A DNA stretch of 63,168 nucleotides, filler included, from Folioceros fuciformis (lineage: Eukaryota), in the NCBI GenBank assembly GCA_049999805.1. It is 9 parts of 9 records of this genome, joined end to end, with 100 filler letters (N's around TTAATTAATTAA, not from the genome) between each part and the next. Parts side by side here need not be neighbours in the genome. Positions count along the whole stretch, not along the records: positions 31,953 to 37,898 come from JBNGIO010002282.1; 8 more parts are not named here. One strand, written 5' to 3'. The notes under the pieces were generated by a model that saw only the letters and a program-made list of their open reading frames with translations, ran no database searches and was not told the origin of the DNA. Below, piece after piece: positions 1 to 63,168 of this stretch; position 1 is the first letter of the stretch; the number at the start of each line of letters is the position of its first letter. Made by a program: the position numbers and the translations under genes.

Positions 1-772
1 AGGATTTGCGCGCGCAGTACACGGACGCCGCCTCCGACTCCAGCACGGTCAGCAGCGGGAACGGGCTGGCGCTCCCCATCCTCTCCGGGGGACAATAAGG
101 GCCGGTGGCCATGCCCGCCATTTGGGCGCACCTGCGCATCGTCTGCTTGGCCGAATCCTCCCATATGGCGGGCACCGTGAGACACCACTGCACGTCCCGG
201 GACGTGATGTGCGGCCCGTACTTCTCCCTCAGGTGCTCGATCACGAACTCTGATAGCTTCCTCAAGTACTCGGTGATGCAGTCCAGGGTGGTGATTCCTT
301 CCGGCAACCCGGCCAGCGCATCCAACTGTTCCGCGTCCGCCCAGTTTTGCCCTTGCCGCCCGCCCCTCCATCCCTCCGGCGCCAGATTGAGCTTGAACTT
401 GAAGAGGAAGAGGCCGGCGCTCTCTGGCCCGCGCTCTCTGCCCCGATTCCTGAGCTGCCTCAAGTGCGCCTGCTGCGCCCCCCAGCCCCAATGCGTAGCC
501 CTGTACTTGGCCTCAGGCCCCTCTCGCACGTAGTACAGGCTCGTCTGCGTCTTGCAATAGCTCTTCTCCTGCCCCGGCCACTCGTAGTGGCAGAACACGT
601 TGTCCGGCTCGTCCCTGTGCGCGAACGCAAAGCCCGAGAATGTAGTCCCGAAATCCAAACCCACCACGACTCTGGCCTCCTCGCTCTCGCTCCCCCTGCT
701 CCCCGCCGAGGCCAAGGCCGAGGCCGATGCCAACAGTCCTTTGCCTTTCCTGGCCTTCCCCCAGGCCGCCAT
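1..772 (-). CDS. HSPA12-type atypical Hsp70 (actin-like ATPase), N-terminal part; runs off the window start
   Basis: Hand translation from ATG at 772 (not in the ORF track): MAAWGKARKG...VVVGLDFGTTFSGFAFAH (phosphate-1)...YEWPGQEKSYCKTQTSLYY...HWGW...FKLNL...ITEYLRKL...VQWCLTVPAIWEDSAKQTMRRCA...VLESEAASVYC. No intron seen. Collinear with the paralog at 31953-32982. Confidence 0.9.
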   Translation of the reverse strand, partial: MAAWGKARKGKGLLASASALASAGSRGSESEEARVVVGLDFGTTFSGFAFAHRDEPDNVFCHYEWPGQEKSYCKTQTSLYYVREGPEAKYRATHWGWGAQQAHLRQLRNRGRERGPESAGLFLFKFKLNLAPEGWRGGRQGQNWADAEQLDALAGLPEGITTLDCITEYLRKLSEFVIEHLREKYGPHITSRDVQWCLTVPAIWEDSAKQTMRRCAQMAGMATGPYCPPERMGSASPFPLLTVLESEAASVYCARKS

Positions 773-7975: not shown

Positions 7976-9706
7976 TCACAAGGGCACTTCCTTGTTGAAT
8001 ATCCAGCTAATGGAAGCGTTTTTGGCAGGTCTGTTTTGCGATCGGCTCTCGGCTCTTTCTTCCAACCTTAGAATGCGTCTTGGAAGATTACACACGTAAT
8101 CTTGAGCCCGCTGGGCCTCGCTGGAGAGTCCCACTCTGTCTTCCACTTTCCAGGCTTGAATCAAGTGCTCAATAATTTGCGCATAGTCTCTGCTCGTATA
8201 CACTCCACATCTCTGAGCAACCTGTGAAAGCAAGGATCAAGGCGTCACAGATCAGTTTCACTACCGGTTTTTTGGAAAACGGAGGACGAGATAGGAGTTC
8301 TTGACTTTGGTGGCGAAGCAGCCACCAAACCAAAGCGAGACGCACAATGAAGACTTGTTGGATACATGCAAGGAACGGATGCGAAAGGTGGTCCTCTTAC
8401 TGAGGCGTAGTCTTGAAACAGGTGACGATTTTCCCCATCAAACATCAAGTGAGCCGGCATCGTGATCCTCTTCCTCATCATCTCCTCGAATGCAATCATG
8501 GCACCACTAGGATCTAGATTGAACAGCTGCTCCACGATCCGAGTATAGGCAATCTCGTGTCTTTTCTCATCAGAGGCAATCATCCCGCAGATAGTAGCAA
8601 GCTTGCTCTCCCCAAATTTCTTGGCATGTTTCGCAGTGTTACCATGGGAAATAAATGTAGCGCGCTCCTGGAAGGAAGTGTAGATGAAGCCATTGTAGGG
8701 ACTGTTGTCGATTCCGGGATCCTGCAGAAGACGCAGAAGTGACGATTGATGGTTAGAAGGCCCTGCACGGGACTTGCACTGCGCTGCTCCAGTCACTGTG
8801 CAGGAAGGAAGCGGAGTTTGTGGTCAGAAGGAAGGCAATCGACAAAAACTTTTCCTCTGAAGCTCGCATGGGAGGATGAGAGTCATCATACCATGCCCGA
8901 GCCAATCAAATGCTGAGTCGTTCTCTCTACCATCTTCATGTCCACCCTGCCAGAAAGATACAGATACTTGTTCAACAGATCTCCATGGCGATTCTCCTCT
9001 GCTGTCCATGCCCTGACCCACACTCCCCATGGTGTTGGACTGCTACCTGTGGTATCTCTCACTCCCTCGAACGTGTTGAAAACAGACTGGTATGTTGGCA
9101 GAGCCTCCTCCGTGATCATATCCCCCACCAGGCACACCAGATAGTCATCCGGGAGCTCCCGTGCTCTTTGCTGCAGCGCTCTCACCTCCTCGTAGAAGCT
9201 ATCGGATGATGCATCGGGAAGGTAATCTTGGGGCTGCCAACACTTGTCTACGGGCTTCAGCAGAGGCAAGAGAGAAGCCTGAGCCCAACTATCCAGTGAC
9301 TCGATGACCTCCAGCTGTTCTCTGGGAATTTGAAACTTCGCTTGTCCATTTGTCACTCTAGTAGTCCTCTGTAGTTGACCTCTGTCAGTCATCAGGTTCT
9401 GCTCAGCAGAAGACTTCAAGGTGGGTTCCACTTCCCTGCAACGACAACACACACAATATAACACTCCGCAACAACGATCGATTACGCTCGCCCATAATTC
9501 CATCACCACATCTACATTGCGACAATTCTTCACCTCTGCTTGACAGATATTGCCGACAACTCGGATTTAGTCCGAAGCCGGGTAGGGAGAGCTTTACCCG
9601 GACCCAAAACAGGTTGTAGCAAATTACGTTCGATAACATCCTGACTAGACAACGAGATCGGAGGGAGAGCAAGCTGTTGGAAACAGCTGACAAGCTTCGC
9701 CGCCAT
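7976..9706 (-). CDS. SAD: Plastid acyl-ACP (stearoyl-ACP) desaturase, 4 exons
   Basis: Motifs [78 protein letters not shown]. Exon 1 (9706-9534, [11 protein letters not shown]...) is transit-peptide-like and splices in frame to exon 2. Confidence 0.95.
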
Positions 9707-31852: not shown

Positions 31853-31952
31853 NNNNNNNNNNNNNNNNNNNNNNNNNNNNNNNNNNNNNNNNNNNNTTAA
31901 TTAATTAANNNNNNNNNNNNNNNNNNNNNNNNNNNNNNNNNNNNNNNNNNNN
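31853..31952. other. Artificial scaffold linker N44-TTAATTAATTAA-N44 (also at 37899-37998, 44159-44258, 45845-45944, 48121-48220, 51715-51814, 53765-53864, 56998-57097)
   Basis: Eight identical 100-nt spacers with a 12-mer that puts stops in all six frames. Confidence 0.97.
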
Positions 31953-32982
31953 CCAACTCCTGCGGCTCCAGATCCTCGTCCGCTCCAAACACCGCCTTCA
32001 CCTCCTCCCATTTCCGTAACATCGCCGTCTTCACACCCGGACTGGTGGCCACCACATCATCGAAGCAAGGGATCCTGGCGCTCACAAACCTGAGGAAATT
32101 CGCGTCCACAAACGTGCCCCCGCACATGTCCCCCCTGCTCTGCCGCACCTCCCGCAGCGCCAAATTTTCCCCTTCCTGGCTATCCTTAGTGTGCACCACG
32201 ATGTCCACCGTCCCCCCTCCCACATCCGCCACCAGGAACTCATCTCCACGCACCAGCCGCAGCTGTCGCATCTTTGCGCAGAAGAACGACGCGGCCTCGG
32301 ACTCGAGTACGATGAGCAAGGGATGCGGGCTGGCCCTGCCCACTTCCCGTGCGGGGCAGAGCGGGCCCGTCACGATTCCGGCCCGCTGCGCGCAGTTCCT
32401 CATCACCTGCTTGGCCGCATCGTCCCAGATCGCAGGTACTGTGAGGCACCACTGCACATGCTGCGCCGTGACGTTGGCCTCCCCATAGGTCACCTGGACG
32501 TGCTCCAGCGCGAACCTGCAGATGCTGCTCAGGTAGTCTGTGATGGCCCGTACCACCGTGACCCCCGGGAAGATCTCCGCCTCCTCATTCCCAAACCTCC
32601 TGCCACTCCTGGAGCCGGATCCTCTGAACCTGGAGGGCAGCCGCCCGCGCTGGCCGGGCCCCGGGGCCAGGAAAAGCTTGAATTGGCTGGCCAGCACGCC
32701 GTTCGCCTGGTTCTTCTCCTTCTCCTTCATGTGGTGCAGCGGCGCGGGCCATCCCCACAACGTGGCCTCGTACTCCGGCGCGTCCGCTTTGCCGTTGTTG
32801 AAGTAGAAGATGCTGGTGGGCGTTTTGCAGTATGGTTTGCCTACCTGACACGGCCACTCGTAGAAACTGAACACCTTCTCCGGCTCGTCTCTGTGACCGT
32901 AAGCGAAGCCCGAGAATGTAGTCCCGAAATCCACCCCGATCACCACCCGGACCTCCACCCCGGCCGCTTGCGACTTCTGCAT
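31953..32982 (-). CDS. HSPA12-type atypical Hsp70, N-terminal two thirds; truncated by the contig end
   Basis: VVIGVDFGTTFSGFAY (phosphate-1), YCKTPTSIFY, WGW, FKLFL, ITDYL, WCLTVPAIWDDAAKQVMR, VLESEAAS, VADVGGGTVD (phosphate-2), GDMCGGTFVDANF, WEEVK. Intronless over the visible part. Confidence 0.93.
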
Positions 32983-33624
32983 TGCAGCAGCAAAGAGTTA
33001 CCCTATCCTGCCGACGCCCCGCAATTCTTCGAACCTGGGAGGACTGTCAGGCACGCCAACTAGGCTGGGCCAAGGCGCATCCAGGGAAGGATGTTTCCCT
33101 TTCTAAGGAATTGATGACCACGTCAAAATTTAAAGCCAAGATCAAGTAGGCGTTCATGTTTTCCCAGGATAAGGCAGGCAGGAAATGCGCTCCCGCTCGC
33201 AACTTGCCTAGCCTCTACCCGCCACACGGGGGGCATGCAGGAGACTCCACCACCACCTCCAGTCTGGCATCTTCACGGCTCGCTCCAGGAACCAGCTGAA
33301 GAGGAGTTATGAGGCCGGTCTGGAAGAAGATGATCGTCGCCGTAGCGCAGCAAAAGTTGAAGAAGCCGAGATAAGAGGAGTTCAGCTATGGCACCAGAGA
33401 TGACGAGGTATGATTCGCTGAAATTCGCCGGGCGGATCAAGCTCTGCAGGGCTATAAAATGAAACGGAAGAAAACGAGTTTTGTGCAATGCAGCGCTCTG
33501 ACTGATTATAACCACTGTTTTTCATTTCGAACAACAGTCGATTCTCCCATCATCAGGGGGCAGTGGGTCACACTGTTCCTCTTCCTCGATTCAAGTCAAT
33601 CCGAGTCAGCCTTTGACAGCTGCG

Positions 33625-35530
33625 ATGGAAAATGTTGAAGCTGCGTGCAGAAATATGCTACATGGCGCCAGAGATAACGAGGTACTGTTCTGTAGGCCGA
33701 TCAAGCTCTCAGACTGGCAATTTTGTACAACCGGAAGAAGACGAATTTTGGGGAATTCCGATGACTGACCTGTGCGCTTGCTTTCTGTTTGAACAACAGT
33801 GGATCCTTGAGTCATCAGGAGCCCCGGCTTACGAAAACCCTACTTCCTCTACCTCAGTCCAAGTCGTGCACACCCAACCTTCAACAGCTGAAGTGCTGCA
33901 GCAGCCAACTCCAATGATCGAATCGGCCCGGATTATGGATTACGAGAGTGCAGCCCCAAGGCCGGGACAAGTAGCCAATCAGTACCTCTCCGCGCTGGAT
34001 AATGTTGAAGCTGGATGCAAAAAGATGCTAGAGTTGGCCTCCCAAGCAAGGGTAGAGCTCAAATGTAGAGACCTGGCGGTGGACCTACCTGAGAAGACAG
34101 CCGATGGCATGATTATTGCCGAACGGCAGCGGTTGGGATATGAAAGAGATGGTGTGAAGGACACCAACGATCATCCTTCCAGCGGGGGAGCACTGGCCCC
34201 AGTCTCTGCCCATCCTCGGGAGCAAGTTGCCAAGATTCAGCAAAGGGAATGTGGTCATCGGCCAACAGGCTCGTTGGACGACGCTAGCGAGTACCATTCT
34301 AAGCAGAGGGAAGGGGTAGCTGATGTTCTTTCTCACCTGAAAAGCTGGAGCAGCCACACTGCAGCGTTTGTTTCTGAGGCTATGGAGCATCACAGGCAAC
34401 TGGAGATAGTGCTGACTCTACCGGAGATCAAGCAAGCACAGCAGGATTGTCATTCCAACGTTAACACCAGTGTGACCAATATGCATCCGCAAGAGCTTCA
34501 AGTCCGCGGCGGCCTAGTGCAGTCTGCCGATCACAAGTGCATGAGGGGAACGCCGGATGATGGGAGAAATTCGGACTCCCTCCATCGGAGAGGATTATCT
34601 GTGCAGAAAGATATTCCGCCCTACGATCAGCACGGGCATACGACGAAGACCGCATCACTGAAGCCGGATGTGCAGCTGGCAACCCACCAGGAGGCACCGC
34701 TGACGAACGAGAACGAGCTGGAGAAGAAAAGGCTGGAGCTGGAGAACGTAAGGCTGAAGGAGGAGGTATGGGCTGGGCAGCAGCAGGTCAAGGAGCTGAC
34801 GAGGTTGTTGGAGCAGAAAACCGCAAGAAAGTCGAGGTCCGGAGCCTACTGCGACGATGAAGCAACACCTGTCCTGCTGGATGATCATGTGAGTAAGGTG
34901 AAAGACAAGCTGCTGTTGTTTGCTCAGGAATACGGCAAGGCGATGGAGAAAGCGGGGTTGCCCTATGGAGATTCCGGAGTGATCCGCAGGACGAACTTTG
35001 CAAGGTCTGTCCACCGCAAGTACCTTGCGGCCCATGTCATATGTACTGTCATGTTCCAAGGCTTCGAGATTGATGGGTTTTGCGGGCCAGGACGTTCGGA
35101 TGTGGACAAACCTCACGGAGCGTTCTTCGAGGAATTCCAGCAGCTCAAGTCCAACAAAACGGTTGTTGACCTCAACCCGACCAACGCCTCCAGTGAGATG
35201 GTCCAATTTGCTCGTACCAAGTTTTTCAGCATTACTCCTGAACAGCTTGTACCGACATGTGAACAACCTAACCATCCCTACTACAAAAGGTTCGTGGCTC
35301 TTGCAACCGCACTGTGGCTGTTGCAAAGGTTGGCCCTCTCCTTTCTGCCCAGTGCAAGTATCTTTCGAGTGGATAGTGGAGCCCACTTGGATCCTTTGTA
35401 CATGGCTAACATTGTGGAGGACGACGAACACTCTTTCCTTTCCAAAGTTGCATTCATGGTTGTTCCGGGCTTCCGTATAGGTAAAATTCTCATTAGAAGT
35501 TATGTGTATTGTCAAAGTTCTGGCATGTGA
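33625..35530 (+). CDS. GIL1/IRKI (DUF641-associated)-like coiled-coil protein with a GrpE-like C-terminal module
   Basis: Long ORF to 35530. Coiled coil ELEKKRLELENVRLKEE..VKELTRLLEQK, then HRKYLAAHVICTVMFQGFE, FFEEFQQLK, FARTKF, YYKRFVALATALWLLQRLALSF..ASIFRV..DPLYM..V.FMVVPGFRIG..IRSYVY, typical of the IRKI/GIL1 C-terminal region. Probable intron 33682-33799. The 5' end is uncertain (ATG 33625 or an upstream exon). Confidence 0.8.
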
Positions 35531-36579
35531 AGTTCTTAGCGGCTCAAGATTAGTGTCTTGTGGGTGCTTCATGCTGCCTTGTGGATGCTTGGTGCTAGCT
35601 CGTGGGAACTGCAAAAAATGGAGTTGTTGCAAGGATGAGTGATGTGCATGATCTCTAGCAGGAATCTCTTTCACAGTTGCAGGAATGTAAAAGACTAGGG
35701 AGAAGTTTGAAGTGGAAGCTATTTAGTTGCAGATATGAAAGGCTCGGATAGAATCTTGGAGGACTTTTACTGATCCTCAAATGAGCATACGAGGAGTTGT
35801 GGTCTGGGCTTAGTGTGGAGAGACAAAGGGAGGAGCTCAGTTGTGAGCTTACTGTAGAGAGACATGGTAGCTCAGTTGATAGTATAATGTGGAGAGATAG
35901 GGGAGGAGCTTAGTTCGGATCTCGATGTAAAGAGATAGAGTAAAGGGCTTAGTTGTGAGATAATTGAGGAGAGCTTGGAGAACAAGCTTGTCAAGCGTAG
36001 AAGCCACTTGGCTTGGGTACATGGCTGGAGCAGCATCACAAGTGGACGGGAAGGTATGTACTTGGAATCTATTATACCTTCAAAAAGGAAGGTCGTGAAT
36101 AGTCGAGATCCCAGCCGCTTTCCCCGGGTGATGCGAGATCCGAGGCCCTTGCGGAAGGAAGGGTGGCGTTATTCTTGTCGAGAGAGATGGATGACAAAGG
36201 GGGGCGTTGGAGAGCCGAGGCCTTTGCGTGTTCTTGTGGAGAGAGATCCCAGGCCTTGTGTAAGGAAGGGCGGCGTTATTGAAGTGAACAGACGAGATCC
36301 GCCCGAGGCCCTCGCGCAAGGAAGGGAGGCGTTAGTCATGAGGGGGACTATTCTTAGATCTGTTAGCTAGGGGCAGAAATGAAAAAGGGAATTGTGATTC
36401 TAGAAGCTTTTGTAATCTTCCTTGTAGATCTGCTGCTGAATGCCAAGTTGATATCCATGGAAAAAATGTTGCACTCTGCGTAGTCTCTAGTCGAGGGTTC
36501 TGGATTGCACAAACTCCAAGGAGGCACCCACAAGGTGCTTCTTGGACGGCTGCCTCCTCTGGCCATAGGAGGCCGATTG

Positions 36580-36735
36580 GGCTGCTCTCTGTCCCTTTTC
36601 TTCATCAGGCTCTCTGCTACTTCTCTTCATCAGGCTCTCTGTTCCTTCTCTTCATCAGGCTCTCTGTTCCTTGTCTTAATGAGGCTCTCTGCTCCTTGTC
36701 TTCATTAGGCTCTCTGTTCCCTTTCTTCATCCGGC
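36580..36735. repeat. 25-bp minisatellite, about 6 copies
   Basis: AGGCTCTCTG recurs at 36607, 36632, 36657, 36682 and 36707. Confidence 0.88.
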
Positions 36736-36905
36736 TACCGAGGCAAACGGTACGGCTTCACATACCTTGGGTCAAAACAGATATCTATCCGCAGGTGTCG
36801 TGAATGCAGCCCAATTTGCTTAGCTGCCTGCGCCTTCACGGCACCATCATGCTCAGGATTGCGGGGACAAGGAAGAGAAGTGTGGAACCGAGAGCAAGCC
36901 AGCGC

Positions 36906-37898
36906 TCACACCACGGGTGTATCGAGCGTCAAGCCGATGACATCGTGCATCACGACCACCTCATTCCGATCCCCGAAATTGAGGCGCCGCCCCCGAACCT
37001 CAATGCACGATAATCCAAAGTACATGGACAGCTCTACTTCCCTGTTCAGATCCAGTTTCTTAGGATCGTCAGATATGTCCATGCTGAAGGTGGCCTCGAG
37101 CTTCACTCCAGAGTCGGTTGTGTAGCGCACCTCTTCCTGCTCCGAGCTATAGATGTTGATGTTGAGGGTAGTGAGGCCACAGATAGAGGGGCTCCCTCTG
37201 TACTTGATGCAGTCCTCCAGAGGAATTTCCTGCCCTTTCCGCACATAAGCCTTGAAGGTGTTGATGCAGTAGAAGTTCCCCTGCGACATGGTCTTATAAG
37301 CAGGGGGATCCCCAGGCTGGAACCTACGCATCTGCTGGATCCCGTACGTCCTGCGGCTAATCCTGGAGATGACCACGTTCGGCGAGAAGCCGAAGAAGAC
37401 GGCCCCTTGGCACACAGCGCTGCCGGGATCCGGCGGGATCACAACCCGATCACCCAGCTGCCTGGCAAAGGCCTCCCTCACTTTGAGCCTGAGATACGGT
37501 GAGGAAGAGAAGCCACCCACCAGCAGCATCATCATCACCTGAGGAGTCAGCCGTTGCCGGATCAACCCAATGATCCCATCCACCACAGGGTCGAAGATGG
37601 TTCGCATATCCCACGCCGTGATCGTCATCTCTTCGTAGTTCTCAGACTGGTACCCTATCATGGCATCGTACTCCTGCCAGGCCCGGGACAAATTGTGAGG
37701 AATTTCCAAATCCCCCGTCCACTGGTCATCGCCATCGAACGACACCTTCATGTCCAGCCAATGTTTCAGTACCTTGGTGAGAGTAGCGGGCACACGCTGC
37801 ACCTCATCCAGGAAGCAGGGAATCCTTTGACTCAGAAATCCCAGAAAGCCCTGGTCCACATGCGTCCCCCCGCAGAGATCCCCCGAGCTCTGCGACAT
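36906..37898 (-). CDS. HSPA12-type atypical Hsp70, C-terminal half; 5' part lost at the contig end
   Basis: SGDLCGGTHVDQGF, IFDPVVDGIIGLI, LLVGGFSSSPYLR, AVCQGAV, RISRRTYG, F..YVRKGQEI, INIYSS, VELSMYFG..IEV. No helical lid or EEVD tail. The Met at 37898 lies at the contig edge and is not the true start. Confidence 0.9.
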   Translation of the reverse strand: MSQSSGDLCGGTHVDQGFLGFLSQRIPCFLDEVQRVPATLTKVLKHWLDMKVSFDGDDQWTGDLEIPHNLSRAWQEYDAMIGYQSENYEEMTITAWDMRTIFDPVVDGIIGLIRQRLTPQVMMMLLVGGFSSSPYLRLKVREAFARQLGDRVVIPPDPGSAVCQGAVFFGFSPNVVISRISRRTYGIQQMRRFQPGDPPAYKTMSQGNFYCINTFKAYVRKGQEIPLEDCIKYRGSPSICGLTTLNINIYSSEQEEVRYTTDSGVKLEATFSMDISDDPKKLDLNREVELSMYFGLSCIEVRGRRLNFGDRNEVVVMHDVIGLTLDTPVV

Positions 37899-37998: not shown

Positions 37999-40900
37999 AG
38001 TATGTTTTGGGAGGAAGGTAGCATGGGGAGCTGGTTCAATATGGGGGTTATCTCCCTGCTCCCTAAGCAAGACGCCAGTTTATCAATCTCCAATTGGCGC
38101 CCGATTACCTTGCTTACTACCACATACAAGGTGATTGCTAAGATACTGGCTAACCGAATTACTCCATTTTTTGATGATTGAATTGAGAAAGAGCAGTGAG
38201 GGTTCATTCAAAATAGGTGCATCCTGGACAACCTCCTACTCCTTAGGGAAGCTAAGTACAACACTCAGGTATAGAAGCAAGCCGCTGTTTTCGTTTCCCT
38301 TGACTTTTACAAGGCTTATGATTCTGTTGAGTGGCATTTCCTGTGGCGATGCCTTCGTAGTTTCGGGTTCGGGAATAATTTATGCAAATGGATAGCCATC
38401 TTGTGTGAAGATGCTGGAGCCAAGGTGGCTGTTAATGGATCCTTTACGGAGCGCTTTGGCATCTCTCGGTCGGTACATCAAGGTTGCCCCCTTGCTCCAT
38501 TCTTATTTATTATCGTCACTGACTTCTTTCTCAGAGCAGTCAAGCAAGACCCGCCAGTGGTGGGCATTCGGAACCCTAATGGATCGCAGCTAAGGGTCTC
38601 GGCATTTGCAGATGATACTCTCCTCTTTTCCTCGGCAGAGGAGGCTTCATTGAAAGCGCTGCGCGAACAGGTCAAAGTCTTTGGTGAGCTGTTGGGCTGC
38701 AAGGTGAACTGTGGTAAGACGTGTATGATGTGTCTTCATTTAGAGGGGGAGCCTCCCCAGTGTATTAATCACATTAGGCGAGTGACTCTGGGTTCTACCC
38801 ACAAGTATTTGGGGCTTCCTTTCCAATAGGAGGAAGAGAACGAGAGATTGGGAAGTAGGTACTTCTCATATTCATTCGCAAAGCGGCTAGTCTGCAGTTG
38901 CTAGAGCTCAACCTGGCAGGTAGGCTGGCGGTGATTGATCATGTCCTTACCGCCTCCTTATGGTATTATCTGTTTTTGTGGGCCCCTTCTAAGACAGAGG
39001 TGAAGCGCTTAAACAGGTGCTGACCTCTTTTTCATGGAAGCGTTCGGGGGATAATATGGCTGGATGCTCTAAAGTGGCTTGGCAGCATATTATTTAGGAG
39101 CGGGGTTTGGGGGGTCTCGGGGTGGTGGACCCGGTTGCCAAGATGAAAGTTTTGCATGCTCAATGGGTTGTTAGGGCAGCAGATCCTACATACTATCCTT
39201 GGAAGAGTCTTCTAACACAGTACTTGGACTGCAACCAAGCTGTCCCCAGGGGAAGGAGATCTATAGACAACATTATGGCTGACAAACTGCTTCTCAATAT
39301 TGCAGATTGCTCCCCGCTTTTCAAGTCCATTTGGAGCAGTTATCTGGAGGTTAAACAAAATATTATCTCGGGTAACGTCTCTCATGCAGATGATGTTCTT
39401 GGTATTCCTTTACAAGGATTCTCGAGGCTGTGGGTTTAGGATTTCAGGTTAAGGGTATATCGGTCCCAAATTTTCGGGCTAGCGTGTCGGAGGGGTGTTT
39501 TCCAACTTGGGCATTTATGGAATAGATCCGAGTCCCGCAGGAAAGAGGTAGAGGAGGTCAAAGGGGAATTTGGCATTGGTGCCCGGCATGTCAGGCTTAT
39601 TTTTCCGTGGCTGCACGAGGGGCTAGAGGAACAGGTGCAACAGATTTTAAGGCAACCACTTACCAGAGGCGAGGAAGGGTGGTATGCATATTCCATGGAT
39701 AGCAGGGGAGTCAACTCGGAGGAGGAGGACGAACAGGAGGATGCAATAGATTTAGATAGAGCAGTCTAGCTTGCAAGAGCTGATGGCAAAGAGGCGTTGA
39801 AATCGTTCCAGGTCATGTCGCTTGCCGGTTTTTTGAAAGTTCAGGGAAGGGAGGACGGGGAAACCCGAGGAGGGCAGCTGCGGGCTATCACTGTCCTCTG
39901 TAAGTCCGTTCGGGCTAGGCGCTGGTGCATTCTAAGCGAACATCCTAGTGGGCCGCAACTTCCGATAAAGCGAAGGCTCTATGTTGGTTCCGTTTGGATG
40001 AAAATTGGGCTCTGACCTTCAGACAAGAACTGTACAAGTGGCCCAAGCGTCCAGGGAGTAAGAAGGCTACTTTTCAATCTTTCTTCAACTTCCCAACGGC
40101 GGATTTATTCCTCTGGCTGGTGCGAGCACAGAAAATCAAGCAAAGACAACCAATGGCTCCCTGATTATAGTTATCTGGACGGCGACAAAGGGAAGCCGTC
40201 AAGCTACTATGGAAGTCCGCAGGAATCCCCCCCAAGGTCAGGTATACGGTTTGGTGCTTCTTTCAAGCGTGTTTGCCTAATGCGGATCGATGGGTTGGGC
40301 TTTTAGTTGCAACAGGAGAGGAAGTGTGTCAACTGTGCAATGCTAGGGCCCCGAACAAGAGTCAGCATATGTTCTTTCACTGTAGCTTTGCTCAAGAGAT
40401 ATGGAGGGAGGTAGGCAGCTGGCTGCGATTCATTTCACCTAGTGCTATCCTCAGGATCACGATGCAATCAGGCTTATTTGGGCTGGATGCAGCCTTGGGC
40501 AAGCCTCTTCTTAAAACACAATGGTGGGGCTTGCTGTGGTCTTTGTGCCTTTTTCATCTTTAGGTCAATTGGTCCGCTGTGGTCTATGGAGGACAGGAGC
40601 CAGCTTCATCGAAAGCTTTGTTGTGGTGCATATTGGAGCATTTATTGATTGCAATAGAAGCGTTAGAGCAATCCCGTCGAAAATAGTTTAAGAGGAAAGA
40701 GTGGAGGTCGGCGGGCTTCCTTATGACTGAGACATGTACGAGCTGGAATCATTTGTGCCCATGGGGAAGGTGAGCCCTTAGGGGCCTTGGGAGACTTTGA
40801 AGGGTTAGTATTAGTGGCTTTGGCAGTCTGCGGGTAGCATAGTGCAGGGGAGCAATCTCTGAGCTTCTCATCTTGAGTTTTGGACTCAAGGTCATTCTTC

Positions 40901-51814: not shown

Positions 51815-53764
51815 TGCAGGAACAAGTTCCTCCACTTGTAGACGAGGAGAGAGTGCAACCAGCTCAGGTCGAGGCGCCAGTGTTTCGTAGGTCAGGAAGG
51901 ATCTCACGTCCTCCTGACAGGTATGTTGCATCTCTTGATTATGTCATGCTGACGGATTGTGGGGAGCCCTCTCGTTACCAAGAGACTATGTCAGTGACTG
52001 ACAAAAACAAGTGGGAGAAGGCGATGCAGTCGCAGATGGATTTGCTCCATAAGAACCAAACTTGGGAGTTGGTTCGGTTGCCTAAGGGCAAGAAGGCGTT
52101 GCCATGCAAATAGGTGTATAAGATGAAGGACATACCCTATTATGGCAAACCCAAGTACAAGGCACGATTGGTTGCTAAAGGTTTTAAGCAACAGCAAGGT
52201 ATTGACTTTGATGAGATTTTCTCACCAGTTGTCAAAATGACTACCTTGAGATGTGTTCTTGGTCTGTTTGCGAGGAACGACAGGAACTTGTCCAGATGGA
52301 TGTGAAGTCGGCATTTCTGCATGATGATCTCCAGGAAGAGGTATACATGCAGCAACTAGAGGGTTTCATTGAGAAGGGCAAAGAGAGTCTGGTATGCAAG
52401 TTAAAGAAGAGCCTTTATGGTTTGAAGCAGGCACCCAGGGAGTGGTATTTCAAGTTCCACTCATTTATGCTTTCTCAAGGCTACAAGCGTAGCGATATGG
52501 ATCATTGCCTCTATACGAAGCAAGCTAAGGATGGAAGCTTGCTCATTCTAGTCCTCTATGTGGATGATATGCTAATTGCTGGGACTAACAGTGATGAGAT
52601 TTCAGCGTTGCAGTCAAAGTTGAATGGTCGCTTTGACATGACAGACTTGGGCGAGGCAAGCCATATTCTTGGCATGCGTATTCGTCGAGACAGACAGAAG
52701 CGTTTGATGTACTTGTCTCAGACAAAATACATTAACAAGGTGCTTCAACGTTTCAATATGGAGAAGGGGAAGGTCTTAAGTACTCTGTTGCCTCCATATG
52801 TGAAACTTTCGAGCAAGGATTGCCCAAGTTCTGCATAGGATAAAGCTGAAATGGAGAAGGTTCCATACTCATCAGCTGTAGGGAGTTTGATGTATGCAAT
52901 GATTGCTACACGTCCTGACATTGCTTTTGCAGTGGGAGTGGTTAGCAGGTTCATGTCAAACCCTGGCAGGAAGCATTGGGAGGCAGTGAAAGGAGTTATG
53001 AGGTATTTGAATGGTAGAAAAGCTTTGTGCTTATGTTTTGGTAGTGAAGATGCATTTGTAGTGGGATATACGGATGCTGATTATGCAGGGGATATGGACA
53101 AAAGGAGGTCCACATCAGGTTATGTCTTCATGTGCACTGGAGGGGCAGTCTCATGGCGATCTCGTTTGCAATCGTGCATAACGCTATCTACCACAGAGGC
53201 TGAGTATGTTGCAGCGACTGAGGCTTGCAAGGAAGCCATGTGGCTTGCTCGTTTAGTGGGAGATTTGGGGATCAAGGGTGAGCTGCCAGTGTTGCATTGT
53301 GATAGGCAGAGTGCTATCCAGTTGGCGAAGAATCCAGTGTTTCATACGTAGACCAAACATGTGGAAGTGAAGTATCACTTCATTCGAGAGGTGTTGGAAG
53401 ACAAGAGGGTACAGCTTGTCAAAGTTCACACCAGTCAGAACCCTGCAGATGTTCTTACCAAGGGGCTCTCTACGGAGCAATTCGCACAAGCTCGGACACT
53501 CATGGGCATGAGCTAGACCACTGTCTTATGAAGGTAAATTGGCCTTTAAGTGGGAGGTTGTAGGGTTATTAAAGCCCAATGTGCTTAGGCTAATGTGTTT
53601 AGTCTAAGATTAGTGTCTAGTTAATGTGCTTAGACTAATGTGTTTAGTCTAAGATTAGTGTCTAGTTAAGTATCATTAGTTTAGATTAGCTTAAGCTAAT
53701 CTGTAGGAAGCTTCCTGTGAGCTTCTTGTGAAGCTTCCTAGGGAGCTCTTCTAGAGGGTATAAA
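51815..53764 (+). mobile_element. Ty1/Copia LTR retrotransposon 3' part: RT-RNaseH, PPT, 3' LTR start; disrupted
   Basis: [87 protein letters not shown]. In-frame TAGs and one frameshift. PPT AAGTGGGAGGT at 53548-53558, then TGTAGGG at 53559. Confidence 0.95.
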
Positions 53765-59387: not shown

Positions 59388-61424
59388 TCATGAACCCACT
59401 CGCATGCGAGACATTCCACGAAAGGCTTGATAGTTCTTCACCGAGGAACAACCGAGACAGCTCAAGATTCCTGTCCTATTTGGAAGGAGAGCCTTCAGTC
59501 TCCCCACGCTCTCTTCCCTGTCACAGGGCTGTTCCGTCTTGTAACGCCTGTACAGAGGAAAGTGCTCAGGGGCTGAAGTGTCAGCCGGTGATGAATCCGC
59601 CTGACTCGCTTGGTTCTTAGCCAACAAAGCTTTCTTGAGACCTGGAGAAGCACTGGCATTGCTGAACCTCCCTGGCTTCACATCCTGAGGGCAGTAAGGC
59701 AACGCCCCATCCACAAGCTCTGCACCAACTGAACTGTTGCTTCCGGAGTTGGATGATGAAAAACTGCCGAAGCTGCCTCTACCACCCCCAATGCTGCCAG
59801 AGCTGCTATTGCTTGCTGGTGAATCTGTCTGTCGGGACCCTGCTACACCATCACGGGGTTCCTCAAGGAGCTCATCCAGGGAGAGCCCTTTCAGACCAGT
59901 CCAGGCCACGTTATTGCTGCCCACTAACTTCTTGGGCACTCCAGCGATAGCACGTCCATTATACTCGCGTTCCCTATCCTCAAGAGGCCAACTCGCATGG
60001 CTGTCGAAGGAAAAGGCGTCCTTTTCCTCCACAGAAGCCCGCTTCGGCTTGGGCTTGTCCTTGTCTGCACGTCTGAACATCCTCAAAGGGGACAGAGACC
60101 TCACCCGTCGGTGGGCTGGAGGAAGTGCAGCCGGACTACCCGTTCCCGCCTCTTCCTTGAAGAGCTTTTTCCCTTTGCGAGCGCCCTGCTCTTCCTTGCC
60201 GCTCCTCAGGCCGAAAAAGAAGCCGCTGCCGCTACCACTTCCTTTCTCCTTGGAAAAGGATTTCCCCTTCCTGTGCATCGGAGTTCCAGGCACACAGGCT
60301 CTGCCACCTACCAGGGAGCAATCTGCAGAGGCGAGATTGCTCTCTCCACACCGAGTATCCAAGCCATCAACCGAGCTTACCGGACCCGAATCAGCGAATA
60401 CTCTGCTAAACTGTTCGGAAGACGAAGAGAAAAAGACATCAGAGACACTCTCTTTCGCAGAGCTGAAGCCCGTGCCTGTGGATCCAGGCGTCAATTGTCC
60501 ACTCATCAAGTGCACATCCGAGTAGCTGAGCCTCGGTTCGTCCCCGCCTAATGCACTCAGAGAGGTAGCACGTCGCCCAGTCCGGTTGGAGAGGCCACAC
60601 AACGCCAGAAGCTTCTGGGCCGGCGACGCAGAAGCTGATCTCGAAACCCGGCCGCTTATCATAGTGAGCCCCACTGCCTGGCCCAGCGACGTTGGCGTAG
60701 CTGGTGTGGGGCTCCTAAACGAAAAAAAAAAAAAACGGAAGCTGCCCATATCATCCCCCGCTTCCGTGAGAATCAACGATTCCGAAGTCGGGGACCTAGA
60801 ATGCTGCTTGCTGATCACCAGCTGAGACTGCAACCGAGGAGGAAGCTTGAGTGGCAGGATTTGACCCTGGTGGATCAGCTGATCGGCCGCAGCAACCAAA
60901 ACACCTTCTCCCCCACCATTGCGGGCAAGGGCACCTCCTCCGGCCGTGTGCGCCTGAAATATGGAATTGGAGAAATCAAACTCCGCCTCCTCTGCCTCGC
61001 ATGTCTCCGCCGATTCGTGCAGAGGGCTCAACGGTCCAACCCGCGGACTGTCCTTTTCCTTGCTTACACCCGGAGCGCAAACCTCCTCCCCCTGCTGCTC
61101 CTGCACACCTTCCCAGGGGAGCATGAGCGGAACCAGCGGCGACTTAGGCGTGCCAGGCTTCTCCTCCCACTTGAAAGGCACCGCACCTTCGAGGTGACAA
61201 GGAGGCAGCAAGCTCTCGGTGACGGCAGAATTGCCGTCAACGTCGTCCATGGAGCGCAGAAACTTCACAGGACTGGACGGGGCACTAAAAAACGGCGGTG
61301 TTGCCCCCGCCCCGAGGTGCTCCTTCTCATGCTTGAAGGAAAAGGAAAAAGCTCGAATCCGCTTAGGAGAAAGCTCAGGCGCCCCAGTCCGCCCAGGCGG
61401 CGCAGCCGTCTGCTCTATCCCCAT
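59388..61424 (-). CDS. Intronless DUF1645/DUF688-motif plant protein, largely low-complexity (678 aa from the likely Met)
   Basis: FFSAPSSP, AVPFKWEEKPGTPKS, EFDF, AADQLIHQGQILPLKLPPRLQ, RVRSLSPLR, C-terminal LLPNRTGILSCLG. The frame is open from 61787, but the likelier start is MGIEQ at 61424. Confidence 0.8.
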   Translation of the reverse strand: MGIEQTAAPPGRTGAPELSPKRIRAFSFSFKHEKEHLGAGATPPFFSAPSSPVKFLRSMDDVDGNSAVTESLLPPCHLEGAVPFKWEEKPGTPKSPLVPLMLPWEGVQEQQGEEVCAPGVSKEKDSPRVGPLSPLHESAETCEAEEAEFDFSNSIFQAHTAGGGALARNGGGEGVLVAAADQLIHQGQILPLKLPPRLQSQLVISKQHSRSPTSESLILTEAGDDMGSFRFFFFSFRSPTPATPTSLGQAVGLTMISGRVSRSASASPAQKLLALCGLSNRTGRRATSLSALGGDEPRLSYSDVHLMSGQLTPGSTGTGFSSAKESVSDVFFSSSSEQFSRVFADSGPVSSVDGLDTRCGESNLASADCSLVGGRACVPGTPMHRKGKSFSKEKGSGSGSGFFFGLRSGKEEQGARKGKKLFKEEAGTGSPAALPPAHRRVRSLSPLRMFRRADKDKPKPKRASVEEKDAFSFDSHASWPLEDREREYNGRAIAGVPKKLVGSNNVAWTGLKGLSLDELLEEPRDGVAGSRQTDSPASNSSSGSIGGGRGSFGSFSSSNSGSNSSVGAELVDGALPYCPQDVKPGRFSNASASPGLKKALLAKNQASQADSSPADTSAPEHFPLYRRYKTEQPCDREESVGRLKALLPNRTGILSCLGCSSVKNYQAFRGMSRMRVGS

Positions 61425-63168
61425 CTCCTCCTTCGCACTCCAACCGCTCCAACTTAGGCCTCGAGGCGATTCTTCGAGCGCTGCAACGACACAACAGAAT
61501 GACGGTTTCAACCCACTGGCAACCTCCGACTCACTAAACAGGCAACAAACCGACAGATCTGTCGGTACGCAATTCCCAATCAAAGGCAACAAGCACGGCA
61601 TAAGACGGAACGGCGGGCGAGGAACCGGCACCCTGCATAGCGCCCGAGGACAGAGCCAAGAACGCAACAATTCCCGAACCGAAAACCAACAATACAGAAC
61701 CCCGCAGACACTTCCACCACCGACAGTACCGGAGAGGAAGAAGAGCAGGCTGATTACGAAAGCGAGGACCCTCGAGCACCCAGGCATGAACTAGAACACA
61801 AGAGGAATGCCACAAGGGACGGCGCCTAACGCTTCCGAGTAGCAGGCGGCCAAAAAGGCGTGGAAGAAACCTGAAATTGCAGGCAGGGAAATGTCATAAC
61901 CCCGGGATCTGACGCCCACGCCTCCGCCGTAGGAAGAAGACACATCACGCACAGTCCAAGACGGAGGCGTCTGAAATTTTGAGATAAGGAGCAGCGAATG
62001 CGATCCCGCAAAGAAGCTGCCGCGGTCGCATCAGCAAGGGCATGGCGTCAAGCGGCGTGAAGAATGCAGAATTGGTGTGGGTGAAGGCGCAGCTGCCCGG
62101 CACCTTCTATGGCGTTCTCGGCCGCTTCCATGGCTGCGTCTCGGTCAGCCTGATGAAGAAGGAGAACGAGGCAGGCGCGAGGCCAGTGGGTAGGGGAGGC
62201 GGGCCACTGTTCCTGCCCGTTAACTTCACCCTTGGCCCGGGTCAGGTTACGTATGTCGGATCGTGAAGCACGAGTCAGAGTAGAAGAGGCGGCACACGTG
62301 GTCCGGCAAAAGGGCCCTTGTGTTTGGGGCAAGAAGCAGGGGGGGGGACGACGGGCCCCAGTCGTGACCGCGACGGCAGCCGGTCGTGAGTGGTAACCGA
62401 CCGTGAGAAAAATTACGCCTGGTCGACGTGCATCCAACTTGGGGACGTGTAGAAAGGTATGTGAGGAGCAGCCACGGAGCGGATCGAAAGTGGGGCGAGC
62501 GAAACATTCTCCGCAAAACCCGACGCGACAGTGCCGGGGACATCGGGCGACTTGCCCGTCGATGCCTTCCGTGTAGGCGGGTATGACCCTAGGTAAAAGA
62601 GTTCATGGTAATCGTGTCCGTCATGAAGCCTGCTTGGGCGCAACGGCAAGATGCTACGCTCGGTTACGCTGTTGGCTGTTGCTCGCGGAGCGTCAGGAGA
62701 CGACCGGTTCCCGGCAGGTTCGTTACGCAAAGGCGGCTGGAGCCGGAGCATGGACTGGCGTGCATCATTCGCTCACGTCTCAGACCCCGTCTCGTGGCTC
62801 GTCTCGTCCGGCGAGTTGCGGCTCATTTGACACCGGCGTCCTTCGCAGGTGCGTCTCCGCATGCCGGTAAGGAACTCGTGCGCTTCGGGGACGGGATGGG
62901 ATGGCTCACAATCATGTCTTCGTCCCTTACCGATGCACGCATTCGCAAGGGCAAGGGCAAGGGGCAAGGCAGCGGGAAGGACGGCGCCCGCCTCGGCCAG
63001 CAGGTGCCAGGGTACAACGGGCAAGTGCCAAGAAAAATAGAAAGGAGCGGAACGGAAAACGGGGAACGGGAGCGGGAAGGAAGCTCTGACAACGGAGCCG
63101 GAGCTCAATGTGCGCCACGTCTCGCAGGCAGGGCTGGCGTCTCACCTGCGGCAAGTGCTGATCTCATG

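Follow-up and report, generated by a model that had tools for sequence, protein, structure and literature searches.

A GIL1/IRKI-family gene with a probably GrpE-like head between two HSPA12-like Hsp70 genes of Folioceros fuciformis

GrpE is the nucleotide-exchange factor of DnaK/Hsp70. The plant DUF641 family, which includes GIL1, IRKI and COST1, is known for phenotypes in gravitropism, autophagy and the shape of the endoplasmic reticulum, for which we found no structural rationale in the literature, and beyond incidental co-occurrence we found no publication linking the DUF641/COST1/GIL1/IRKI family to GrpE. In the accessible part of a published report, the DUF641 protein COST1 is a dimer by gel filtration and stimulates the GTPase RHD3, and an AlphaFold3 model sets its C-terminal domain against the RHD3 GTPase domain (PMC13189119); since COST1 acts on RHD3, members of this family have partners besides Hsp70s, and the word GrpE is absent from that part of the paper. 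The HspA12 proteins are presented in the accessible part of a 2026 review as lidless, massively expanded in bivalves and of unknown function (PMC13580251). Here we describe a locus of Folioceros fuciformis (assembly GCA_049999805.1) at which a gene of the GIL1/IRKI family, B, whose C-terminal head is likely to be GrpE-like, lies between two HSPA12-like genes, A and C, on a single contig (JBNGIO010002282.1, positions 31953-37898). The window analysed, 63,168 nt long, strings together nine contigs with linkers at 31853-31952 and at seven further sites, each made of 12 bases that stop all frames between two runs of 44 N, so that genes on different contigs need not be neighbours.

The contig at 31953-37898 contains no N, and its open reading frames (ORFs) give the order A (minus strand), B (plus strand) and C (minus strand), with both A and C cut by the contig ends. 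A (31953-32982) retains the 5' half of its HSPA12-like Hsp70 gene, an ORF of 343 codons that starts with the ATG at 32982 and is broken off by the contig end. C (36906-37898) retains the 3' half of its own gene, a second HSPA12-like paralogue, with 330 codons and a stop, and lacks the 5' part, which is lost at the other contig end. A divergent spacer of 642 bp (32983-33624) separates the start codons of A and B, a length that follows from placing the start of B on RNA evidence and that lies inside the range of about 0.2-0.65 kb proposed in a sequence-only reading of this DNA, and a convergent spacer (35531-36905) runs from the stop codon of B to that of C. Three public runs match the contig: X1 and X3, both DNA and from the same sample, and X2, from a separate study; none is recorded as RNA, and X2 is taken to be RNA-type from a guess and from two spliced joints. 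The A-B junction is spanned by X2 record 11 (32794-35005) and the B-C junction by X2 record 12 (35089-37090, depth 62) and X1 record 7 (35352-37090), and the RNA-type cover is unbroken from A across the spacer into B, with the second contig continuing from the 3' end of B into C. These records are contigs, the depth of which cannot rank expression and is no measure of co-regulation, so the cover of both head-to-head genes in one RNA-type run speaks for presence and overlap. ORFs, tblastn and these bridging contigs together confirm what the sequence-only reading had described, an Hsp70-like gene, a GIL1/IRKI gene and a second, different Hsp70-like paralogue on one unbroken contig.

B is transcribed and spliced, since X2 record 11 is without two stretches bounded in the genome by GT..AG, namely intron 1 (33408-33537, plus strand, 130 nt; joint 33405 to 33536, cut +2), with GT at 33408 and AG at 33536, and intron 2 (33682-33799, plus strand, 118 nt; joint 33679 to 33798, cut +2). 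Counted from the earliest in-frame ATG after splicing, the coding region comprises 595 codons on the plus strand (33625-33681 joined to 33800-35530), while the unspliced frame (33617-35530) has 635 residues. The divergent spacer holds the 5' exon of B, which ends at 33407 and carries a short upstream ORF, together with intron 1. The 5' part of the gene (33520-34030) contains internal duplications, with copies of 38-39 nt at spacings of 262 and 370 nt that are 76-85% alike, and the ends of exons 1 and 2, with their introns, resemble copies of each other. No second copy of B is found by tblastn within the 63,168 bases at E<=1e-3.

Membership of B in the GIL1/IRKI family, as had been claimed for the central gene, is established by the Pfam domain GIL1_IRKI_C (PF24994) at 35360-35509 (plus strand), which scores 35.7 bits against a cut-off of 27 (E 8.8e-9) and lies where HHalign also aligns. 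An exhaustive HMMER search gives 190 relatives at E<=1e-3, the best at 6.8e-52, all 190 of which align only within residues ~336-635 of the unspliced frame, i.e. the last ~290 residues, and the first ~300 residues have no relatives at this threshold. The closest are P0126 and P0276 (44-49% identity, P0126 being the best at 49%), and the relatives with names are all plant, from Ceratopteris, Riccia, Ceratodon, Calypogeia and Selaginella ('GRAVITROPIC IN THE LIGHT 1') to Amborella ('IRK-interacting protein'), Welwitschia, Asparagus, Salix and Tanacetum; B and seven relatives have 19 invariant columns in common, in the middle and C-terminal region. B resembles GIL1, IRKI and COST1 in carrying PF24994, with 27-49% identity over the last ~290 residues, and in the build of a stalk followed by a C-terminal domain, but its first ~300 residues are without relatives at that threshold and the N-terminal DUF641 domain (PF04859) is not detected at E<=10. 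That domain is not universal in the family, since only 47 of the 96 aligned members have it, the other 49 being without it, as B is. Three relatives, P0409 (Ceratodon purpureus, 1082 aa), P0173 and P0204, are more than 1000 residues long, and in them PF24994 alone is recognised, at the very end.

The conserved part of B is predicted to consist of a stalk and a head. The AlphaFold2 model of the last 296 residues (96-sequence alignment; predicted local distance difference test score, pLDDT, 87.2) opens with a helix of 44 residues, after which come a second helix and a helical block and then a final helix and a small β-domain, in agreement with the long helix, helical block and beta module of the sequence-only reading. 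The first helix (34703-34834, plus strand; residues 22-65 of model 1, block pLDDT 86-97) is the presumed coiled-coil stalk, and the head (34853-35527, plus strand), made of a helix, a helical insert, a helix and the small β-domain, reaches a pLDDT of 92.3 and a predicted template modelling score of 0.90 when its 225 residues are modelled alone. GrpE chains lead all five structure searches. They hold ranks 1-3 of 48,161 chains for both the long model and the head, and ranks 1-5, 8 and 9 of 824 in a further structure comparison, and in Foldseek against the PDB, GrpE or GrpEL1 fills five of the top ten rows for the long model and eight of the top ten for the head; the structural alignments cover 95-106 of the ~110 residues of the GrpE head at ~10-19% identity. 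Profile comparison points the same way. HHalign aligns 35378-35503, in the C-terminal domain, to the β-domain of E. coli GrpE (residues 146-188) over 42-45 columns with a probability of 28-47%, using GrpE profiles built from PF01025-found ORFs of sampled bacterial genomes with relatives at least 86% identical to E. coli GrpE left out. The score is 30.1 (P 6e-4) with 31 GrpE sequences and 31.5-34.1 (P 2e-4 to 3.3e-4, probability 38-47%) with 60 sequences from two phyla, against 11.9 for reversed GrpE, 16.1 for an unrelated HSPA12 profile and, for 256 column shuffles, a mean of 11.7 (standard deviation 2.1, maximum 20.5), none of the 256 reaching 30. PF01025 itself is weakly matched by seven of the 96 family members, the best at E 0.028. 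The support for a GrpE-like pattern is real but sub-threshold, and it applies to the GIL1/IRKI family as a whole.

The genes on either side of B, and a third on another contig (D, 5' part, 2-772, minus strand, by tblastn), are assigned to the HSPA12-type Hsp70s on sequence grounds, as had been proposed for the flanking genes. This label is correct because their nearest relatives are HSPA12-like rather than canonical Hsp70s, the full-length relatives pass Pfam HSP70, the nearest clusters of A in a language-model protein atlas are Hsp70-family (score 0.96), the ATPase motifs are kept and the end of C has no EEVD tail. The fragments themselves stay below the Pfam HSP70 cut-off of 20.6 (A 10.1 bits, D 13.6 bits; C without a match at E<=10), and it is the full-length relatives P0007, P0006 and P0011 that pass it; comparison of A, B and C with PDB chain sequences gave nothing useful, and no match at all for A or C. 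A has 629 database relatives, the best in Calypogeia fissa (40%) and Selaginella ('heat shock 70 kDa protein 12A-like', 43%), followed by Diphasiastrum, Ceratopteris, Klebsormidium and Mesostigma and then by Mucoromycota and animal HSPA12A, including that of Branchiostoma; seed plants are absent from the 120 matches listed. Full-length HSPA12-like proteins from Selaginella, Calypogeia, Diphasiastrum, Klebsormidium and amphioxus can be aligned with A, C and D, whose ATPase motifs are intact, C falling on the C-terminal halves of these proteins. Alignment A5 shows no variation in the motif columns of phosphate 1 and phosphate 2, and its invariant or near-invariant columns include D18-F-G-T-T, E227/A231 and G256-G-T-x-D of A, in keeping with the phosphate 1, phosphate 2 and connect motifs. 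The genes are thus like HSPA12A/B in their ATPase motifs and, for C, in the absence of an EEVD end, but are only 28-30% identical to the animal members and are multi-copy here, three genes on nine contigs.

A and C are 47-48% identical over an overlap of 65-70 residues, and A and D 48.5% over 241 residues (tblastn within the stretch). At such identity A and C are different paralogues, and the possibility that they are halves of one gene is ruled out by the 47% of their overlap. An X2 joint leads from 37896 to 32185 with 38 extra off-contig letters, after which the sequence matches A from 32185; this is most likely the C transcript continuing into its own A-like upstream part rather than a rearrangement. 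With identities of only 47-48% among them, A, C and D are old, diverged duplicates that show no sign of recent pair amplification. Recent tandem amplification is ruled out on the same identities, and the suggestion of a tandemly amplified pair is not supported, there being one B only.

Whether the pairing of an HSPA12-like gene with a GIL1-like gene is a module depends on its recurrence, and it is seen once, at this locus. D, for which the sequence-only reading had noted no visible partner upstream, indeed has no GIL1-like gene in 31 kb upstream by tblastn. Among 70 GIL1 loci of Joint Genome Institute (JGI) metagenome contigs (692 kb with flanks), tblastn with A, C, D and P0006-P0039 finds no HSPA12-like neighbour, although all 70 are distant from B (24-39% identity) and many may come from plants that lack HSPA12-like genes. 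In none of three named species are the sampled members of both families co-located, the families being larger than the sample: they lie on chromosomes 05 and 11 as against 31, 26 and an unplaced scaffold in Ceratopteris, on scaffolds of 4.34 and 2.45 Mb as against 0.56 Mb in Selaginella, and on a 13.7 Mb contig as against five other contigs in Calypogeia. None of 14 long family members is an Hsp70-domain fusion. A complex prediction with two copies of B 340-635 and a truncated A domain, run without family alignments, scored 0.00 and weighs neither way. The claim of a module therefore keeps its layout and both its families but finds no recurrence in any of these linkage tests, which are weak. 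Likewise the analogy with paired receptors and a defence switch is not upheld, A, B and C having no NB-ARC, TIR or LRR Pfam match at E<=10. The sequence-only interpretation is, in sum, partly supported.

How far this evidence reaches can be judged against three other explanations. It is scarcely credible that assembly has produced a chimera here: although the contig is short and truncates the genes on either side of B, contigs of three runs and two studies match it without differing letters and bridge both A-B and B-C; one of the DNA runs may be the source sample, but X2 comes from another study. A weightier objection is that the GrpE likeness is convergent or due to chance, B being an ordinary GIL1/IRKI scaffold like COST1, GIL1 or IRKI that lies beside Hsp70 genes by accident. 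Several results weigh against a GrpE-like head and favour this objection. All structural and profile scores are sub-threshold, Foldseek against the PDB giving no match at E<=1e-3 (the best score for the head is E 0.056, probability 0.54); Pfam GrpE (PF01025) has no match in B at E<=10; HHalign aligns only the few dozen columns given above; and once its own Pfam entries are excluded the head falls nearest to MIEAP clusters rather than GrpE (0.82, a lead only). In addition, the 60 matches listed for the family profile against PDB sequences are only coiled-coil proteins, with GrpE absent. However, GrpE had been proposed before the searches began, and with two models and two aligners it ranked first among 48,161 chains, the alignments span nearly the whole GrpE head, and the HHalign score stands ~9 standard deviations above the shuffles and rose with the more diverse GrpE profile. 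We therefore regard convergence or chance as rather unlikely, the head of B as likely to be GrpE-like and common descent of the two as plausible; for the GrpE-like end first claimed from sequence, the lead in structure searches and the match to the β-domain stand, but every score is below the usual marks of significance. B also differs from GrpE, GrpEL1 and Mge1 in having no Pfam GrpE match and ~10-19% structural identity, a ~100-residue helical block between the two head helices and a long unconserved N-terminal part, and in being a nuclear, plant-specific gene. The MIEAP observation is of separate note. With its own families excluded, the head (34853-35527) has as nearest named atlas clusters those of MIEAP (PF16026) from chordates and molluscs, at 0.78-0.82 against a mark of 0.9. 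MIEAP, the mitochondria-eating protein, combines coiled coils with a C-terminal domain and may be an animal counterpart of the B head; we found no literature joining MIEAP and HSPA12.

The third explanation makes B a dedicated GrpE-type exchange factor of the neighbouring HSPA12-like ATPases, co-transcribed with them from a shared bidirectional promoter. B does have an HSPA12-like gene on either flank, 642 bp separate its ATG from that of A, with unbroken RNA-type cover from one gene to the other, the head is GrpE-like and A keeps its ATPase motifs; and since the function of HspA12 is called unknown in the accessible part of the review (PMC13580251), an unidentified cofactor is plausible. The arrangement also recalls bacterial grpE-dnaK, in that an Hsp70-type ATPase gene lies beside a GrpE-shaped gene. 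In contrast to the bacterial case, however, these eukaryotic genes, arranged divergently and convergently, each have a transcript of their own and form no operon, no J-protein gene is found on the contig at 31953-37898, and the linkage is seen once. The lone D, the 70 GIL1 loci, the three species (sampled members) and the 14 long proteins all speak against a dedicated pair. Furthermore, the GIL1 family is common in seed plants (Amborella, Salix, Asparagus, Welwitschia), which are missing from the 120 listed matches of A, so that the family as a whole is independent of HSPA12, and the one member for which the literature consulted gives biochemistry, COST1, acts, according to the accessible part of its report, on a GTPase (PMC13189119). 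We consider a dedicated exchange factor unlikely.

Our preferred reading, to which we give about an even chance, is that B is an expressed GIL1/IRKI gene within a small, old and diverged HSPA12-like cluster of a non-seed streptophyte genome, that its head is a remote relative of GrpE, and that it serves as a stalk-and-head adaptor without being part of a conserved module. The adjacency is then more likely a matter of where B lies, in a gene cluster that has expanded, than a sign of a conserved two-gene unit. The conserved part of B would consist of a coiled-coil stalk and a head in which the helix pair and C-terminal β-domain copy the GrpE head, with the ~100-residue helical block inserted between the helices. 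B would work as a dimer, its head docking on a partner's nucleotide-binding domain so as to alter the nucleotide cycle, by analogy with GrpE on DnaK. This docking view matches the available account of COST1 on the GTPase RHD3 (PMC13189119), and by the same analogy a dimer acting on a nucleotide hydrolase fits the GrpE-like stalk-and-head build of B. A bolder version, which we hold to be distinctly improbable, has the whole DUF641/GIL1/IRKI/COST1 family derived from GrpE and still working through a dimeric stalk whose head opens a nucleotide-binding domain, while the DUF641-less subfamily of B would be the HSPA12 exchange factor of non-seed streptophytes, a partnership preserved at this head-to-head locus.

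Elsewhere in the window two exons of a plastid-type acyl-ACP desaturase gene lie at 8248-9566 on the minus strand (FA_desaturase_2, E 3.9e-49 and 8.5e-69), and reverse-transcriptase fragments are found at 38275-38826 (RVT_1, E 5.7e-25) and 52215-52835 (RVT_2, E 1e-44); together with the protein matches of A and B, this gene content points to a streptophyte source. An open frame of 800 codons on the minus strand at 59391-61790 has no Pfam match at E<=1e-3.

Two poorly understood protein groups, the HSPA12-type Hsp70s and the plant DUF641 family, meet at this locus. The fold link in the DUF641/GIL1/COST1 family is the lead that most deserves to be followed, and it stands by itself even if the adjacency of B to the HSPA12-like genes is chance. 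If the head is GrpE-derived, a candidate cofactor is nominated for the HSPA12-type proteins, and the family would gain a concrete and testable mechanism, docking on a nucleotide-binding domain, one that would fit the placing of the COST1 C-terminal domain beside the RHD3 GTPase domain in the accessible part of that report (PMC13189119).

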